A DNA stretch of 64,000 nt from Escherichia coli (lineage in GTDB: Bacteria > Pseudomonadota > Gammaproteobacteria > Enterobacterales > Enterobacteriaceae). The notes under the pieces were generated by a model. The model saw only the letters and a list, made by a program, of their open reading frames with translations. It did not search any database and had not been told where the DNA came from. The stretch is taken from assembly GCF_048403405.1 (NCBI RefSeq), contig NZ_CP183129.1; one strand, given 5' to 3'. The position numbers and the translations under genes were made by a program. Positions 1 through 59,751 of this stretch are shown in pieces (within the stretch, counting starts at the first letter, position 1; each line of letters starts with the position of its first letter).

Positions 1-1149
1 GCCAATAATCTCGCCAAATTCACTATCAACATTGTTGAGCTGCTCGGTCAGGGCGAGGTTTTCATCAACCAGCCGTTCTTTCAGACGATGGATTTCCTGA
101 TAGGCGAGGGCGTTATCGACAGCGATTGCCACACGTTCGGCAATCTGGCGCAGTAAATTCAGATTGGTAGTGGTAAACACTTTCTCTTCGCATTGCGCCA
201 GTTTCAGCACGCCCAGCATGGTGTCGCCAGACATCAGCGGTAACAGGCACAAGGTTTGAATCTGGTTGCCCCAGGTGTCGAACAACATGCGTTCATAGGG
301 GGCTAAATCGTCCCGCTCGTGGAGATTAATCAGCAGCATCTCTTTGCTTTTGAACACGCGTTCGGTGAGGGTTCCGGCTTCATCGACTTCGCTCTGTTCG
401 TGGGCGGGATGCTGTTTATCAAGATAGTGAGTGGAGTAGATGTTGAGTTTGTTTTTACGGTGGCTGCGTAAGACGATGCTGATATCGTCAATGTCGAAGT
501 AGTAATGGATTTCTTTGGCGACTTCGCTGACCAGTTCGTCCATATCCAGGCGGGAAAGCACCGCGTTGGTAATGGCAACCAGGATGCGGAAGTTATCGCG
601 CTCCCGGCATAACAACTCATAGTCGACATTGTTAACGACGCGGCTCTGGATTTGTTCGGTGACGACAGAAACGATCTGCGTAAATGTTTGCAGACGATTG
701 AACTCTTTTTCGCTCCAGGGGCGATCGTCATAACGAATAAATTCACAGCCACCAAAAATATGCCCTTCCGCCGCCAGTGGCATCAGGCAATAGTGACCAA
801 ATTTGGGGTATAGCCCACCTGCGGCCAGCTGCGGCCAGGTTTCACAAAATTCTTCGTAACTGCAATGCAGCGTATCAGGGCGCGACAAAATGCTGCGTAC
901 CGGACCGTGTGCCAGAACAGTTTCGTCTTCATATTTAATGGGGGGGTCTTTTTCACGCGATGCGTAATAAGACGCACGTTGAGTCTGCGCTTGCCACAAC
1001 ACAATAGCCGCGTTGTCGGCGAGCGCAGAACGCTTTACCAGTTGCGAAAGAGCCTCACACAGCGAGGCCAGATCGGGCTGCTGCAATAGTGTCCGAGTGA
1101 TGTCGAACAACCCTTGTTGTCCGAGATCACTCATCGGTGTATATGACAT
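1..1149 (-). CDS. fhlA: Formate hydrogenlyase transcriptional activator FhlA, N-terminal 383 codons; 3' end lies beyond the window start
   Basis: Reverse complement from 1149 translates MSYTPMSDLGQQGLFDIT..., matching the FhlA N-terminus as I recall it; in-frame to position 1. Not in the ORF track because no stop lies in the window. Confidence 0.85.
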   Translation of the reverse strand, partial: MSYTPMSDLGQQGLFDITRTLLQQPDLASLCEALSQLVKRSALADNAAIVLWQAQTQRASYYASREKDPPIKYEDETVLAHGPVRSILSRPDTLHCSYEEFCETWPQLAAGGLYPKFGHYCLMPLAAEGHIFGGCEFIRYDDRPWSEKEFNRLQTFTQIVSVVTEQIQSRVVNNVDYELLCRERDNFRILVAITNAVLSRLDMDELVSEVAKEIHYYFDIDDISIVLRSHRKNKLNIYSTHYLDKQHPAHEQSEVDEAGTLTERVFKSKEMLLINLHERDDLAPYERMLFDTWGNQIQTLCLLPLMSGDTMLGVLKLAQCEEKVFTTTNLNLLRQIAERVAIAVDNALAYQEIHRLKERLVDENLALTEQLNNVDSEFGEIIG

Positions 1150-3623: not shown

Positions 3624-4486
3624 CGCTGTGTCTCCAGCCAGTTCAGCCACTGGTCCATCCCTTCGCCGCTGGTGGCGGAAATAAGGATGATTTCAATTTC
3701 TGGATTGACTTCGCGGGCGCAGGCGATGCACTTCTCAACGTCAAAGTTGAGATACGGCAGCAGGTCAACTTTGTTGAGCAGCATCAGCGAGGCGGCGGCA
3801 AACATATGGGGATATTTCAGCGGTTTGTCTTCACCTTCGGTAACGGAAAGCACCGCCACTTTGTGTTTTTCACCGAGATCGAAGCTCGCCGGGCATACAA
3901 GGTTGCCAACGTTTTCGATAAACAGAATACCGTTATCGTCCAGTGGCAGGCGCGGCGCGGCGTCGGCAATCATCTGTGCGTCAAGATGGCAGCCTTTACC
4001 GGTGTTCACCTGAATCGCTGGTGTGCCGGTAGCGCGAATGCGTGCGGCATCGTTCACGGTTTGCTGGTCGCCTTCAATAACCGCGCACGGAACGCTGTCT
4101 TTCAGGCGCATTAAGGTTTCCGTCAGCAGGGTGGTTTTACCGGAACCAGGGCTGGAAACCAGGTTGAGCACCAGTTGCTTGCGGGCAGCAAAGCGCGCGC
4201 GGTTGCGTTCAGCCAGACGGTTGTTTTTGTCCAGCACGTCAATTTCAACTTCCAGCATCCGGCGCTGGCTCATGCCCGGCGCGTGAGTGCCCGCTTCGCC
4301 ATGACCGTAATGCAGGTCGCCTTCTTCAGTCTGGCTGGGGGTAAATTCAGGCGTTTTAATGCCGGTGATTTTCATCTTCGGGCGTGCCGCCGGGGCAAAT
4401 GGCGCGCTACGAAACGCGGAATGAGGGTTATGTTCATCACCCTCGATATACAGGTTGCCTTCACCGCAACCGCATGTTGTACACAT
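3614..4486 (-). CDS. hypB: Hydrogenase nickel-incorporation GTPase HypB (290 aa)
   Basis: [22 protein letters not shown]..., His-rich N-terminus and GTPase P-loop (GSGKTT). Confidence 0.95.
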
Positions 4487-4489
4487 CGC

Positions 4490-4840
4490 TCACTCCTGGT
4501 CTATTTCTATCCGCCGAATCTGTAAACCGTCGTCTGCCACAATCTGTAGCATGTCACCATGACACTGTGGACAGCGGCGGACGCGCTGGGTCAGTAGCGT
4601 CACATACTGTTGGCATGTTTCACACCAGCATTCGGCCTCTTGTTCTTCGAGGTGCAGTTTACAACCTTCCGCCACGCTGCCGCGGCAAACCAGATCAAAA
4701 CAAAAGGCAAGAGAGCTGGTTTCGACACAAGAAAATGCGCCAATTTTGAGCCAGACCCCAGTTACGCGTTTTGCGCCGTGTTTTGCGGCCTGCTGTTCGA
4801 TCAATTCCAGTGCCCGTTGGCAGAGGGTTATTTCGTGCAT
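4490..4840 (-). CDS. hypA: Hydrogenase nickel-insertion protein HypA (116 aa)
   Basis: MHEITLCQRALELIEQQAAKHG... with the C-terminal CxxC...CxxC zinc motif; the track ORF starts 4 codons earlier. Confidence 0.93.
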   Translation of the reverse strand: MHEITLCQRALELIEQQAAKHGAKRVTGVWLKIGAFSCVETSSLAFCFDLVCRGSVAEGCKLHLEEQEAECWCETCQQYVTLLTQRVRRCPQCHGDMLQIVADDGLQIRRIEIDQE

Positions 4841-4869
4841 ATCGCCTCCCATTAACTATTGCCAGCTAC

Positions 4870-4887
4870 AAGCAATAATTGTGCCAG
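4870..4887 (-). promoter_or_regulatory. Sigma-54 (-24/-12) promoter for the hyp operon
   Basis: Minus strand reads cTGGCACaattaTTGCt, i.e. GG-N10-GC spacing, about 30-45 nt upstream of the hypA start. Confidence 0.6.
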
Positions 4888-4910
4888 TGTTGATTATCCC
4901 TGCAGTGAAT

Positions 4911-4960
4911 AATGTCGATGATGTCGAAATGACACGTCGACACGGCGACGAAATTCATCT
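4911..4960. promoter_or_regulatory. Candidate FhlA upstream activating region between the divergent hyp and hyc promoters
   Basis: Repeated TGTCG/CGACA half-sites (atgtcgatgatgtcgaaatgacacgtcgacacggcgacgaaa) between two sigma-54 promoters; exact sites not verified. Confidence 0.35.
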
Positions 4961-4999
4961 TTAGCTTAAAAATCGCTTTAATAACAATGAATTAAAAGT

Positions 5000-5016
5000 T
5001 GGCACAGAAAATGCTT
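5000..5016 (+). promoter_or_regulatory. Sigma-54 (-24/-12) promoter for the hyc operon
   Basis: tTGGCACagaaaaTGCTt with GG-N10-GC spacing, about 35 nt upstream of the hycA ATG. Confidence 0.6.
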
Positions 5017-5051
5017 AAAGCTGGCATCTCTGTTAAACGGGTAACCTGACA

Positions 5052-5513
5052 ATGACTATTTGGGAAATAAGCGAGAAAGCCGATTACATCGCACAGCGGC
5101 ATCGTCGCCTACAGGACCAGTGGCACATCTACTGCAATTCGCTGGTTCAGGGGATCACGTTATCGAAAGCGCGCCTGCATCACGCCATGAGCTGCGCGCC
5201 GGACAAAGAACTCTGTTTCGTCCTTTTTGAACATTTTCGTATTTACGTCACCCTGGCGGATGGCTTTAACAGCCACACCATCGAGTATTACGTCGAAACA
5301 AAAGATGGTGAAGACAAACAGCGGATTGCGCAGGCGCAACTGAGCATTGACGGCATGATTGATGGCAAGGTCAACATCCGCGATCGCGAACAGGTTCTGG
5401 AACACTATCTCGAAAAAATCGCTGGCGTTTACGACAGCTTATACACCGCCATTGAAAACAATGTGCCGGTGAATTTAAGCCAACTGGTAAAGGGACAAAG
5501 CCCGGCAGCATGA
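5052..5513 (+). CDS. hycA: Formate hydrogenlyase regulatory protein HycA (153 aa)
   Basis: MTIWEISEKADYIAQRHRRLQDQW...; first gene of the hyc operon. Confidence 0.93.
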   Translation: MTIWEISEKADYIAQRHRRLQDQWHIYCNSLVQGITLSKARLHHAMSCAPDKELCFVLFEHFRIYVTLADGFNSHTIEYYVETKDGEDKQRIAQAQLSIDGMIDGKVNIRDREQVLEHYLEKIAGVYDSLYTAIENNVPVNLSQLVKGQSPAA

Positions 5514-5637
5514 GCTGAGGCTTTGCCCGTTTTGCAGGCGTTACGCCTGTTTGGGGATGGGCGTGTCGATGAGTGTCGAAAATGACATTTCATCGGCATG
5601 TTTTCGTCAAAAATGACAATCACCTGAGGAATGCCTG

Positions 5638-23807: not shown

Positions 23808-23828
23808 AATTGCAGATTGCGTGCCAGT
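23808..23828 (-). promoter_or_regulatory. Sigma-54 (-24/-12) promoter of norVW
   Basis: Minus strand reads cTGGCACgcaatcTGCAat, about 45-60 nt upstream of the norV ATG. Confidence 0.65.
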
Positions 23829-26426: not shown

Positions 26427-27192
26427 TGCTCTCTCCGGTTATGATCACATCGATCCCTTTCTTTTCCAGCGCCTGACGAAACGCTGGATCGATACCTGCG
26501 TCGGTAATTAGCTTATCGACGCTTTCAAGACTGCAAACTACGTTGGGGCTTTTACGGCCAAACTTTGATGAGTCTGCCATCAAAATCACTTCGCGCGCGG
26601 CATTGCACATTGCCTTACTGACGGTATAAACCTCGTTGAACGTGGTTACGCCCGCATTGAGATCGATGCCGTCGGTGCCCATAAACAATTTATCGAAGGT
26701 GAAATGCTCGAAGGCATTCTCTGCCAGTTGCCCGTGAAATGAGGCCGATTTTTTACGAAATGTTCCGCCTGGCATCAGGATAGTTTGTTCGTTATCCAGT
26801 TCGGATAGCGCATTGACGATATGCAGGCTGTTGGTCATCACTGTGATGTTATTAAAGCGCGAGAGCAGGGGAACCATCTGCAAAACGGTACTGCCAGCAT
26901 CAAGAATGATCGAATCGCCATCATGGATAAAACTAACGGCAGCTTCTGCAATCAGCTCTTTCTTGTGGGTGTTGATGAGTGTTTTATGATCGATAGGCGG
27001 ATCGGATTCCTCTTTATTCAACACCACTCCGCCATAAGTACGAATGACGGTTCCGGCATGTTCCAGAATGACCAGATCTTTGCGAATGGTTGTGCCTGTG
27101 GTGTCAAAGTATTGCGCCAATTCTTCAACCGAGCATTTACCCTGCTTTTGCAGATACTCCAGAATGGCGGCCTGACGCTGACGAGGTTTCAT
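26419..27192 (-). CDS. srlR: DeoR-family glucitol operon repressor (257 aa)
   Basis: [40 protein letters not shown]..., DeoR HTH. Confidence 0.92.
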
Positions 27193-37594: not shown

Positions 37595-37687
37595 GGTGAG
37601 GTGGCCGAGAGGCTGAAGGCGCTCCCCTGCTAAGGGAGTATGCGGTCAAAAGCTGCATCCGGGGTTCGAATCCCCGCCTCACCGCCA
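37595..37687 (+). tRNA. serV: tRNA-Ser (anticodon GCU)
   Basis: GGTGAGGTGGCCGAGAGGCTGAAGGCGCTCCCCTGCTAAGGGAG...CCCCGCCTCACCGCCA; long variable arm, CCA encoded. Confidence 0.93.
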
Positions 37688-37690
37688 TTT

Positions 37691-37767
37691 GCATCCGTAG
37701 CTCAGCTGGATAGAGTACTCGGCTACGAACCGAGCGGTCGGAGGTTCGAATCCTCCCGGATGCACCA
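37691..37767 (+). tRNA. argV: tRNA-Arg (anticodon ACG), copy 1
   Basis: GCATCCGTAGCTCAGCTGGATAGAGTACTCGGCTACGAACCGAGCGGTCGGAGGTTCGAATCCTCCCGGATGCACCA; 3 nt after serV. Confidence 0.93.
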
Positions 37768-37901
37768 TATTCTACGTACTTTCAGCGATGAAGGTATGGA
37801 AGAGGTGGCGGTAATAACCGCAGGCACCAGGGAGGATAACGTTGCTTTAGCAACGGCCCGAAGGGCGAGCCGCAAGGCGAGTAATCCTCCCGGATGCACC
37901 A
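37768..37901 (+). repeat. ~134-nt tRNA-associated repeat ending in a copy of the tRNA-Arg 3' end, copy A
   Basis: atattctacgtactttcagcgatgaaggtatggaagagg...aatcctcccggatgcacca; the last ~19 nt equal the T-arm/acceptor 3' end plus CCA of tRNA-Arg; a near-identical copy lies at 38323-38455. Confidence 0.7.
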
Positions 37902-37965
37902 TCTCTTACTTGATACGGCTTTAGTAGCGGTATCAAAAAATCTGCAGTAAAGTAAGTTTCCCGAT

Positions 37966-38042
37966 GCATCCGTAGCTCAGCTGGATAGAGTACTCGGCTA
38001 CGAACCGAGCGGTCGGAGGTTCGAATCCTCCCGGATGCACCA
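37966..38042 (+). tRNA. tRNA-Arg (ACG), copy 2
   Basis: Identical 77-nt tRNA-Arg sequence. Confidence 0.93.
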
Positions 38043-38105
38043 TCTCTTACTTGATATGGCTTTAGTAGCGGTATCAATATCAGCAGTAAAATAAATTTTC
38101 CCGAT

Positions 38106-38182
38106 GCATCCGTAGCTCAGCTGGATAGAGTACTCGGCTACGAACCGAGCGGTCGGAGGTTCGAATCCTCCCGGATGCACCA
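38106..38182 (+). tRNA. tRNA-Arg (ACG), copy 3
   Basis: Identical 77-nt tRNA-Arg sequence; 63-nt spacer from copy 2. Confidence 0.93.
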
Positions 38183-38245
38183 TCTCTTACTTGATATGGC
38201 TTTAGTAGCGATATCAATATCAGCAGTAAAATAAGTTTTCCCGAT

Positions 38246-38322
38246 GCATCCGTAGCTCAGCTGGATAGAGTACTCGGCTACGAACCGAGCGGTCGGAGGT
38301 TCGAATCCTCCCGGATGCACCA
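38246..38322 (+). tRNA. tRNA-Arg (ACG), copy 4
   Basis: Identical 77-nt tRNA-Arg sequence; 63-nt spacer from copy 3. Confidence 0.93.
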
Positions 38323-51559: not shown

Positions 51560-51915
51560 GCAATAGAAAGATTCCTGTTATTTGTTTATGTCGATACATT
51601 ACCCAATGGAAATAGTCACTTTTTTCTACCCTAACATACTGAGAATCTGAGGCAACCCCTGATGGCAAATGTGGCATGAATATTGATGTGAGCAAATCGC
51701 CGGAATTTCCCATGATATAAGGGCTGAGAGCAAATCGAGAAAAGTTGATATTTTTTGTCAAAGATAGCGAAAAAACGCCTGAATATTGTGGTTTCAGGCG
51801 AATAATGCAACAGAGTGTCAGTGTAGATCACCACAAAATATTTGCGTGATAAAAAGCTATTTGGTGGGAATTATTTCCCTGCTGCGGGTAGTGATATTTT
51901 TGAAAAATAACACCC

Positions 51916-55654: not shown

Positions 55655-55862
55655 GATTCGTATTTCCGTTTAAAATGAAGATACGGCGCGATGATACGCG
55701 TCGGGTTGTCTCTCTGTTGATACAGAGATACTAGATGTAGTTGAAAAAATATTCAACCATACAAGATATGGGAATTTTAGATTGATTACGCCACCGATGA
55801 ATGGCTCAACGGGGTAGGGGATTTTGTGTTTTTTTGCCGGGCGAATACCCGGCATCAAGAAG

Positions 55863-56294
55863 TTACATCCGCATGGAAACGGCCAGACGGTTAAAACAAT
55901 TCATCAGCCCGATGGCAAACGTTAAGTCGCTGATCTCTGCTGCGCTGAAATGCTCAAGCAAAGGCTGATAAACCTCGTCTTCCGCATGGGTTCTGGCAAT
56001 TTCGGTTACCGATTCCGCCCATGCCAGCGCCGCCCGCTCGCGTTCATCAAAATGATGGCTTACGCGCCAACCTGCCAGGGCGTCCAGTTTGTGCTGTGGC
56101 ACGCCGGATTTGCGCAATGCTTTGCTGTGCATCTCCAGACAAAATGCGCAGCCGTTGATTTGCGAGACGCGCAAATAAACTAACTCCATCAACGTGGTAT
56201 CCAGCGTGCTATTTTCCAGTGCCGTTTTGGCCTGCACTAGTGCGTTATACACTGCCGGGCTAAGTTCGTAGTAAGGCTGACGTAATGTAGTCAT
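55863..56294 (-). CDS. AhpD-like / carboxymuconolactone decarboxylase family protein (143 aa)
   Basis: MTTLRQPYYELSPAVYNALVQAKTALENS...VSQINGCAFCLEMHSK...; CxxC-containing AhpD core motif. To my recollection there is no K-12 counterpart at this position. Confidence 0.75.
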   Translation of the reverse strand: MTTLRQPYYELSPAVYNALVQAKTALENSTLDTTLMELVYLRVSQINGCAFCLEMHSKALRKSGVPQHKLDALAGWRVSHHFDERERAALAWAESVTEIARTHAEDEVYQPLLEHFSAAEISDLTFAIGLMNCFNRLAVSMRM

Positions 56295-56381
56295 ACAGTT
56301 TCTCCTCTTATTAACGCCCGCAATGTAGCACTATAATGGACTGCTAAAGAGAGCCATAAATTACCTAAAAAAGCAGACCAT

Positions 56382-57716
56382 ATGCCGCGCTATCAGGATA
56401 TCGCCCGTCAGTTAAAAACGGCTATTGAGCAAGGGGAACTGAAACCCGGCGCAAGGCTGCCTTCAAGTCGTACCTGGTCGCAGGAGCTGGGGGTGTCTCG
56501 ATCCACTGTCGAAAATGCGTATGCTGAGCTGGTGGCGCAAGGATGGCTGATCAGGCGGGGACAGGCTGGCACATTTGTCAGTGAGCGGATATATCCGCAA
56601 CAATCTACTGTACAAGTTGTAGCTTTTGCCGGTGAAAGTCAGCAACCGTTGCCATTTCAAATGGGATTACCCGCACTCGATCTCTTTCCGCGAGAGCTGT
56701 GGGCGCGGGTGATGGGGCGTCGCCTTCGTACCCAGACGCGCTTTGATTTGGCGTTAGGCGATGTCTGCGGTGAGGTGGCGTTGCGCGAGGCAATAGTTGA
56801 TTACTTACGCGTTTCACGTGGGATTGATTGTCAGCCAGAGCAGGTCTTTATCACTCACGGTTATGCGGCCTCAATAGCTTTAATTCTGCACGCGCTGGCG
56901 AAACCGGGAAACGGGATGTGGATAGAAGATCCCGGCTTTCCACTGATTCGCCCGATTGTCACTCGCCATGATGTGGAAATTTTGCCTGTGCCGGTTGATG
57001 ACAATGGACTGGATATCACAAGCGGAATACAAAATTATCCTGATGCGCGTTTTGCCCTGATAACACCAGCACACCAAAGTCCGCTGGGTGTGGCGCTCTC
57101 TTTAGCGCGCAGGCATCAGATACTGGAATGGGCAGATCGTAGTCAGGCATGGATTATTGAAGATGATTATGACAGTGAGTTTCGCTATCACGGTAAGCCG
57201 TTACCGGCGTTAAAAAGTCTCGACGCACCGCAGCGGGTAATTTATGCCGGAACATTCAGCAAAGCGCTATTTCCTGCATTGCGCTGTGCGTGGCTGGTGT
57301 TGCCGGTGAAGCAAATTGCACAATTCCGCCACCAGGCGTCACTGGCTCCATGTGCGGTACCTGTTCTATGGCAGAACACACTGGCAGACTTTCTTCGCGA
57401 GGGGCATTTCTGGCGGCATCTGAAGAAAATGCGTCAGCATTATGCTCAACGTCGGCAATGGATTGAGCAAGCGTTGACGCAGCAAGGATTTCAGGTTGTG
57501 CCGCAGAAAGGTGGTATCCAGATGGTGATCAGAATGATAGGCGATGATATTGCCCATGCGCGTAAAGCCAATGCTGCAGGCCTTGCGGTGCAGGCACTTA
57601 GCGACTGGCGTATCCGTTCAAGTGGGGAAGGTGGATTACTGCTCTCGTTTACTAATATCGTTAACGAAGGTATGGCGCGACAGGTAGCACAACAATTACG
57701 TAAAGCCTTAAGCTAA
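56382..57716 (+). CDS. MocR/GabR-type transcriptional regulator (GntR HTH + PLP aminotransferase-like domain, 444 aa)
   Basis: MPRYQDIARQLKTAIEQGELKPGARLPSSRTWSQELGVSRSTVENAYAELVAQGWL... (GntR HTH) followed by an aminotransferase class I-like domain (...GTFSKALFPALRCAWLV..., K of SK being the predicted PLP lysine); divergent from the AhpD-like gene. Confidence 0.75.
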   Translation: MPRYQDIARQLKTAIEQGELKPGARLPSSRTWSQELGVSRSTVENAYAELVAQGWLIRRGQAGTFVSERIYPQQSTVQVVAFAGESQQPLPFQMGLPALDLFPRELWARVMGRRLRTQTRFDLALGDVCGEVALREAIVDYLRVSRGIDCQPEQVFITHGYAASIALILHALAKPGNGMWIEDPGFPLIRPIVTRHDVEILPVPVDDNGLDITSGIQNYPDARFALITPAHQSPLGVALSLARRHQILEWADRSQAWIIEDDYDSEFRYHGKPLPALKSLDAPQRVIYAGTFSKALFPALRCAWLVLPVKQIAQFRHQASLAPCAVPVLWQNTLADFLREGHFWRHLKKMRQHYAQRRQWIEQALTQQGFQVVPQKGGIQMVIRMIGDDIAHARKANAAGLAVQALSDWRIRSSGEGGLLLSFTNIVNEGMARQVAQQLRKALS

Positions 57717-59084: not shown

Positions 59085-59751
59085 GCTAATGCTCCTTAAT
59101 AAAAGCGTAATGGGATGTGAATGGAGATGAAAGCAGTGGATCTCATTGCCATCTGCATTTTCGCATAGCGTATATCGCTGGCTATGACTAATCAATTAGT
59201 GAAAAATTTTTATTTAAACTGTTTTTGTAGATAAAATATTCCGTAACGGCGCGTTTTTTGTACATTGTGGATTTTTACATGCCGATATGGTTTATTTTAA
59301 ATTGAATCAATTAGATATGATCCTGCCTTTAATTACACTAATGAAAGTTTGGGGGTGAGATAACGCTATAAGCGTAGAGAATTCGGTGTATGTCGTGACC
59401 GGGTCATTTTCAGCATTTTTTATGCCAGAAAATGTACATTGACAGCAGAAAGCACCAGTGAGGGGTGTTTTCATTTATTCGGTTAAATTGCATTTTTATT
59501 CACTTTGGTTTTGTCAGGCTTGCGGAATTAGCGAGCAGAGAGCGCCGCTCTGTTCACCAATAACCGAAATTACTCATCAAAATGGCTAATATATAATCTT
59601 GAAATTATTCTGAGAGTTTCAGAAAATAACAGCTGAAATAATCTCGTGCAGGACTGTAAATAGATTAAATTTTGTGGAAATATAATAAGTGATCGCTTAC
59701 ACTACGCGACGAAATACTTTTTTGTTTTGGCGTTAAAAGGTTTTCTTTATT

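Follow-up and report, generated by a model that had tools for sequence, protein, structure and literature searches.

We find that the interval between hypA and hycA in this Escherichia coli window (the whole 64,000-nucleotide stretch of DNA analyzed here) almost certainly carries two divergent sigma-54 promoters activated by FhlA. One drives hypABCDE-fhlA leftwards and the other drives hycABCDEFGHI rightwards, and the proposed mechanism of activation involves two enhancer clusters, UAS1 and UAS2, and DNA looping that IHF would assist. The region is already known in detail, and it is a real, functional, and strongly conserved enhancer-dependent promoter pair. To the first-pass annotation of positions 4841–5051 we add UAS2, which lies beyond that interval, and a stepwise pattern of spacing across genera; the known picture is unchanged by either. 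Fermentative hydrogen production in enterobacteria is controlled by this switch, which ties the synthesis of hydrogenase 3, and of the proteins that mature every [NiFe] hydrogenase, to intracellular formate. Strain engineering for biohydrogen commonly targets the region, and both UAS2 and the ~10–11 bp spacing steps should be useful to those who redesign it.

Divergent sigma-54 promoters between hypA and hycA

The interval 4841–5051 is exactly the 211-bp intergenic spacer of hypA and hycA. It separates two divergent genes, with the hypA ATG at 4840 on the minus strand and the hycA ATG at 5052 on the plus strand. Its G+C content is 40%, versus 52% for the whole window. The first gene of the hyp operon, hypA (4490–4840, minus strand), encodes a 116-aa protein beginning MHEITLCQ (Pfam HypA, E = 7.6e-31; RefSeq), and the first gene of the hyc operon is hycA (5052–5513, plus strand; Pfam HycA_repressor, E = 1.3e-90; RefSeq). 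The genes hypB-E and the start of fhlA follow on the left of hypA, and hycB-I on the right of hycA.

After hypE, the hypABCDE-fhlA transcription unit closes with fhlA, which encodes the activator of both promoters. The window contains its 5' part (1–1149, minus strand), that is, the first 383 codons with the GAF domain (Pfam GAF, E = 5.5e-19; RefSeq annotation). Its product name, formate hydrogenlyase transcriptional activator, comes from the RefSeq annotation of a 98.5%-identical strain. HycA is the FhlA antagonist. Both regulator genes are linked to their target operons, fhlA downstream of hypE and hycA at the head of hyc, as is expected of members of the FhlA regulon. The RefSeq annotation of NZ_CP027437.1 labels the FhlA gene (window 1–1149) as “flhA”/“FlhA”, which can be confused with the flagellar export gene flhA.

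Each strand of the spacer carries a -24/-12 element with the canonical 12-nt offset between GG and GC. The hypA promoter TGGCACAATTATTGCT (4871–4886, minus strand; GG at -24, GC at -12) fits the consensus with no mismatches. Its -24/-12 element, TGGCACaattaTTGC, reads TGGCAC-AATTA-TTGC from 4886 to 4872, where the plus-strand bases are GCAATAATTGTGCCA. The hycA promoter TGGCACAGAAAATGCT (5000–5015, plus strand) contains the element TGGCACagaaaATGC at 5000–5014 (TGGCAC-AGAAA-ATGC), which has one mismatch (A for T before GC) to the consensus TGGCACN5TTGC and fits the relaxed form TGGCACN5WTGC. These are the two elements that the first-pass annotation had proposed, one on each strand, and we recovered both at these positions with the sequences it gave. 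Under the rule of Bonocora et al., which places the start 19 nt downstream of the motif center, hyp transcription is predicted to start at ~4860, 20 nt before the hypA ATG, and hyc transcription at ~5026, 26 nt before the hycA ATG.

The relaxed motif TGGCACN5WTGC has three exact matches in 128 kb (both strands of the window), versus 0.64 expected. Two of the three fall in the 211-bp spacer, and both aim at a gene start 40–50 bp away. We also scored the window with a sigma-54 weight matrix built from 29 published sites quoted in two papers, from which the hyc and hyp sites were excluded. Of 128,000 positions, the hypA element scores highest (20.9 bits); the hycA element comes seventh in the window (14.3 bits).

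Published data place sigma-54 at the same motifs. ChIP-seq of sigma-54 in MG1655 yielded peak OS27 at hycA (TTGGCACAAAAAATGCT, enrichment 91) and peak OS28 at hypA (CTGGCACAATTATTGCT, enrichment 201), and Table 1 of that study flags both promoters as experimentally confirmed in EcoCyc (Bonocora et al. 2015, PMC4591121). The starts predicted there for K-12, 26 nt before hycA and 20 nt before hypA, equal the start-to-gene distances in the window. The 17-mer at hypA is identical to the OS28 17-mer, and the hycA motif differs from OS27 by a single spacer base, at 5007. In vitro genomic SELEX also detected a peak of sigma-54 holoenzyme in the hycA/hypA spacer (Shimada et al. 2021, PMC8743547). In Salmonella, ChIP-chip and microarray experiments found sigma-54 bound at both homologous promoters and showed that hyc (26-fold) and hyp (5.6-fold) depend on RpoN for expression (Samuels et al. 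2013, PMC3844500).

Both the SELEX and the Salmonella studies identify FhlA as the activator. The GAF-AAA+-HTH layout of FhlA, its binding of formate, and what it does at fdhF, hyc, and hyp are described in a 2024 preprint and a 2026 paper. According to secondary sources, fdhF, hyc, and hyp are all activated by FhlA, which binds DNA upstream of the first two. A further source (PMC2636881) includes IHF among the activators of hyc and hyp. The first-pass annotation had judged the region consistent with the FhlA- and formate-dependent formate hydrogenlyase regulon and had called this known biology. Gene identities, K-12 occupancy at the same motifs, SELEX, and the Salmonella data support that reading, as does the resemblance of the spacer repeats to those upstream of the FhlA-dependent hydN and fdhF promoters; “known biology” was a correct description.

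A 501-bp query around the spacer has matches at ≥95% identity in 5,425 of 5,426 complete E. coli genomes, where the annotated features are hypA and hycA. Compared with K-12 MG1655, the window has the same locus, an equal spacer length, and an identical hypA 17-mer, identical -24/-12 cores, and identical repeats throughout. Four single-base differences in the spacer (window 4904, 4975, 4989, and 5007) leave GG, GC, and the repeat cores untouched; the change at 4989 falls in the N4 of an IHF-like core and that at 5007 in the spacer of the hyc promoter.

Conservation extends well beyond the species. A scan with HycA, taking one genome per species, gave 80 loci from 15 named genera: Escherichia, Salmonella, Citrobacter, Enterobacter, Klebsiella, Raoultella, Kluyvera, Kosakonia, Lelliottia, Pseudocitrobacter, Pseudescherichia, Superficieibacter, Intestinirhabdus, Huaxiibacter, and Pseudenterobacter. 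In all 80, hypA and hycA stand back to back, with a spacer of 188–223 bp, and both -24/-12 elements are present. The predicted start-to-ATG distance across these loci is 18–24 nt for hyp (32 in one Citrobacter locus) and 24–27 nt for hyc. Among 81 sequences, columns conserved at ≥95% comprise GCAATAA (4872–4878), TGCCA (4882–4886), TGGCA (5000–5004), and TGCT (5012–5015), while the promoter spacers between the conserved -24 and -12 columns are variable.

Scans for other signals around the spacer returned little. The sole terminator call within 4400–5600 (4935–4950) is the GTCGAC palindrome of UAS1. Matches to an FNR box (TTGAT-N4-ATCAA, up to two mismatches) occur at chance level, and none in hypA is convincing; an FNR-dependent internal hyp promoter has been described in the literature. 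An Rfam scan of the whole window found no RNA family overlapping the hypA-hycA region.

Enhancer repeats within and beyond the spacer

The TGTCG/CGACA repeats noted in the first-pass annotation do lie between the two promoters, at 4913–4942. We designate this predicted FhlA binding region UAS1; its units are TGTCGA at 4913 and 4922, TGACA at 4930, and GTCGACA at 4936. At the level of pentamers, there are TGTCG copies at 4913 and 4922 and a CGACA at 4938, and CGAAAT is found at 4925 and 4949. The repeat core (4913–4938) is well conserved across genera; a weaker GACGAAAT unit at 4947–4954, on the 3' side of UAS1, is not conserved. UAS1 is centered upstream of both predicted starts, at ~100 bp for hyc and ~67 bp for hyp.

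A second cluster, UAS2 (5563–5620; GTGTCGATGAGTGTCGAAAATGACA...TTTTCGTCAAAAATGACA), occupies the hycA-hycB spacer, outside 4841–5051. It consists of TGTCGA at 5564 and 5574, TGACA at 5583, TTTTCGTCA at 5601, and TGACA at 5614. UAS2 is situated ~565 bp downstream of the hyc start, inside the hyc transcript, and ~730 bp upstream of the hyp start. Its repeats are kept although the hycA-hycB spacer ranges from 67 to 146 bp among genera, and 16 nt at 5602–5617 (TTTCGTCAAAAATGAC) show ≥95% identity across 78 distinct sequences from orthologous loci. In conservation, UAS2 at least equals UAS1 and if anything surpasses it. An FhlA site between hycA and hycB was reportedly footprinted by Schlensog et al. 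(1994) and assigned to hyp activation, UAS1 being said to serve hyc and UAS2 to serve hyp. UAS2 is probably that hycA-hycB site. Text searches of the accessible literature found no statement on a hycA-hycB FhlA site.

The near-invariant UAS2 bases lie only ~20 nt before the ribosome-binding site of hycB. A further function for these bases is conceivable, either in the hyc mRNA, for translation or stability of hycB, or as a protein roadblock within the operon. Directly after the hycA stop codon, at 5535–5549, there is also a perfect hairpin (CAGGCG-TTA-CGCCTG) followed by TTTGGGG. It is present only in the longer Escherichia-type hycA-hycB spacers, and the terminator scan did not call it.

Judged by sequence, UAS1 and UAS2 belong to one class of site. 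They share the same order and orientation of units, and a profile built from orthologous copies of the first half of UAS2, with the window excluded, has 4913–4935 as its only other significant match in 64 kb (E = 2.5e-4), in the same orientation. The two clusters also share TGTCGA/TGACA and TTTCGTCA units with the regions upstream of hydN and fdhF: TTTCGTCA and GTCAAAACTGAC units recur upstream of fdhF, and TGTCGATGACA recurs upstream of hydN. The three densest clusters of TGTCG/TGACA-type pentamers in the 64 kb are the three regions adjoining FhlA-regulated genes, although 60-bp windows with four to five such pentamers arise in most shuffles, making density weak evidence.

The FhlA consensus published as a 16-mer, CATTTCGTACGAAATG (Leonhartsberger 2000, as given in PMC4987338), fits these clusters poorly. 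A literal scan found no site with six or fewer mismatches inside the hypA-hycA spacer; the closest, with six mismatches, begins outside it at 4829 and overlaps the start codon of hypA. Within UAS2, no match is better than five mismatches (at 5600). Only half-site-like pieces are present, such as CGAAATG at 4925–4931. We dropped the literal consensus as a detector, the two best matches in the window (three mismatches, at 26747 and 50399) being in unrelated places. Natural FhlA sites appear instead to be degenerate arrays of TGTCGA/TGACA-type units. Thus, the mismatch lowers confidence in CATTTCGTACGAAATG as a search tool, not in the membership of these operons in the regulon.

A putative IHF site lies between UAS1 and the hyc promoter. 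Its core, TAACAATGAATTA (4982–4994, plus strand), has one mismatch to WATCARNNNNTTR and an A/T-rich tract on its 5' side, and 5 bp separate it from the -24 element of hycA downstream. Of 81 orthologous sequences, 32 have the exact core at a fixed 18–19 bp from TGGCA, and most of the others are one base off. Perfect cores are found in many genera (e.g., AATCAATGAATTA).

These elements suggest the following mechanism. At each -24/-12 element, sigma-54 RNA polymerase would be held in a closed complex, unable to open the DNA alone. Formate-bound FhlA, an enhancer-binding protein with GAF, AAA+, and HTH domains, would occupy UAS1 and UAS2. An IHF-induced bend at ~4965–4999 would help to loop enhancer-bound FhlA onto the hyc polymerase, and ATP hydrolysis by FhlA would then open the promoter. 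The sequence elements, with their positions and conservation, are our own results, whereas sigma-54 occupancy in K-12 and Salmonella and the dependence on RpoN and FhlA come from the cited papers; we infer the exact FhlA and IHF contacts, as well as the assignment of enhancers to promoters. Since fhlA is carried by the hyp unit, the circuit would include positive feedback, and the position of hycA as the first gene of the hyc operon would provide negative feedback.

Spacing across genera and alternative readings

The distance from UAS1 to each -24 element takes only a few values across genera. In Escherichia, Enterobacter, Salmonella, and others, UAS1 lies 44 bp from the hyp -24 element (42 in Salmonella) and 70–71 bp from that of hyc. 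In Kluyvera, Pseudocitrobacter, and Superficieibacter, these distances are 54–55 and 61–62 bp; in the Citrobacter freundii group and Kosakonia, 42–43 and 59–61 bp; and in the Pseudescherichia group, 44 and 48 bp. From one TGGCA motif to the other, the gap measures 113–115, 101–102, or 91 bp, with 111 bp in one locus. UAS1-promoter distances differ only by steps of ~10–11 bp, near one or two helical turns. Such steps are expected if the enhancer must face the promoter on the same side of the helix across an IHF bend. Only four or five independent indel events lie behind the pattern, and the stepwise spacing is therefore suggestive.

In six Klebsiella/Raoultella spacers, the enhancer takes another form, a long inverted repeat (ATGTCGATGAC-N12-GTCATCGACAT). 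This replaces the Escherichia-type TGTCGA-TGTCGA-TGACA array and is closer to the repeats upstream of E. coli hydN.

The spacing bears on how the two enhancers divide their work. A single FhlA oligomer on UAS1 might activate both promoters, with UAS2 acting as a distal auxiliary and not as the sole hyp enhancer. This arrangement is possible, but we consider it a good deal less probable than its opposite. Both ~67 bp (hyp) and ~100 bp (hyc) are workable enhancer distances, and the restricted spacing (42–44 or 54–55 bp to hyp; 48, 59–62, or 70–71 bp to hyc) would suit an enhancer that serves both sides. In Kluyvera, Pseudocitrobacter, and Superficieibacter, moreover, UAS1 has moved roughly one helical turn, yet the two promoters are still 113–116 bp apart. 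Against this, the classical footprint and deletion studies reportedly give hyp activation to the hycA-hycB site, and the conservation of UAS2 is at least equal to that of UAS1. The indel events are few, and the steps could equally reflect phasing of the two promoters with each other or with the IHF bend. The more specific proposal that UAS1 is phase-locked to both promoters, so that one FhlA assembly and the IHF bend jointly serve hyp and hyc, is more doubtful still, and we place the separate proposal of a second role for UAS2 at the same low level.

Two further readings would set aside FhlA or the promoters themselves. Another regulator, such as ModE or a GlrR-type protein that binds TGTC-N10-GACA, might recognize the TGTCG/TGACA repeats while FhlA acts elsewhere. 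The literature does name ModE as a secondary hyc activator, and the literal FhlA 16-mer fits poorly, but TGTC...GACA spacings here are 5–6 or 14 nt versus 10 nt for GlrR, and the three densest pentamer clusters in the 64 kb all adjoin FhlA-regulated genes. The same repeat type recurs upstream of the FhlA-dependent hydN and fdhF promoters and in the hycA-hycB spacer, which makes a different regulator very improbable. The -24/-12 matches might, on the other hand, be non-productive sigma-54 sites or chance look-alikes, with the operons transcribed from other promoters. Many E. coli sigma-54 sites are indeed intragenic and of unknown function (PMC4591121), and look-alikes also occur inside hycA (5121–5136) and hycE (TGGCACAGCAGATGCG, 10058–10073, plus strand). 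Yet both spacer elements face a start codon 40–50 bp away and are kept in all 80 orthologous loci, both promoters are listed as experimentally confirmed, and expression in Salmonella is RpoN-dependent. A sigma-70 promoter scan of 4400–5600, furthermore, gave one site versus 1.6 expected, which is nothing above chance, and the look-alike in hycA is explained by its codons. Conservation, orientation, and published data effectively exclude this reading, to which we assign almost no probability. The divergent pair of FhlA-activated sigma-54 promoters is the interpretation that we retain.

The look-alike within hycA (TGGCACATCTACTGCA, plus strand) scores 16.0 bits, above the hyc promoter. It encodes Trp-His-Ile-Tyr-Cys, and we rejected it as a conserved site on finding TGGCG or TGT there in many orthologues.

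Comparison systems and other features of the window

The closest comparison within the window is the hydN-hypF promoter CTGGCATGATTTGTGAA (18142–18158, plus strand), which corresponds to ChIP-seq peak OS26. Upstream of hydN, FhlA-type repeats at ~18050–18095 and an IHF-like TAACAGTAAATTA just upstream of the promoter give a layout like that of hyc. hydN in the window, fdhF in K-12, and hyc all combine a repeat cluster, an A/T-rich IHF-like segment, TAAAA-NN-TGGCA, and a -12 element. In contrast to the divergent hyp/hyc pair, hydN and fdhF have single promoters. At hydN, the repeat-to-promoter distance also differs by ~14 bp, and the -12 element is TGTGAA, not TTGC.

A divergent arrangement is seen elsewhere in E. 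coli at zraP/zraSR. As at hyp/hyc, two sigma-54 promoters face outwards; those of zraP and zraSR are separated by ~160 bp, and ChIP-seq shows sigma-54 on each (OS38 and OS39). Their activator is ZraR, a phosphorylated response regulator, unlike the ligand-sensing FhlA. The activator sites reportedly lie between the zraP and zraSR promoters (Leonhartsberger et al. 2001), and no second, distal enhancer is known there. The order of enhancer, bend site, and -24/-12 element, together with a dependence on helical phasing, is the textbook arrangement for IHF-assisted enhancer looping at sigma-54 promoters (e.g., nifH, glnHp2, and Pu), and hyc resembles it. Compared with those systems, here the intergenic enhancer has a promoter on either side, and transcription of the hyc operon runs through a second one.

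Several other sigma-54 motifs occur in the window. The norV promoter TGGCACGCAATCTGCA (23811–23826, minus strand) corresponds to ChIP-seq peak OS25 and faces norVW, with norR divergent; it ranks second in the window by weight matrix, but it is a member of the training set. Upstream of proV and pointing away from it is TGGCATGAATATTGAT (51672–51687, plus strand). This motif is the K-12 “intergenic antisense” ChIP-seq site OA04, and its counterpart is bound at Salmonella proV. In the stpA-alaE interval, the sigma-54-like motif TGGCATAAAAAATGCT (59412–59427, minus strand) points towards alaE and scores 14.6 bits, slightly more than the hycA promoter; it is absent from the main-text tables of the ChIP-seq paper (PMC4591121).

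The window also differs from other strains in gene content. Between hycI and ascB, at 13081–13808, lie genes for a HigB-family toxin and a helix-turn-helix antitoxin, annotated by way of the 98.5%-identical colinear strain. In K-12, ascB presumably follows hycI directly. A 1.9-kb two-gene segment (55770–57714) between nrdH and ygaM is absent from strain 2012C-4221. From their translations alone, its 143-aa ORF, which has a CxxC motif, looks like an AhpD/carboxymuconolactone decarboxylase type of protein, and the divergent 444-aa ORF looks like a GntR/MocR-type PLP-dependent regulator. Conversely, 2012C-4221 has a 2.1-kb insert encoding an ATP-binding protein and an RNA ligase between luxS and emrB (near 41894–41950), which the window lacks. 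Ordinary E. coli features of the window include a tRNA cluster at 37595–38319, with one tRNA-Ser and four identical tandem tRNA-Arg genes, and the small RNA MicA at 41233–41304.
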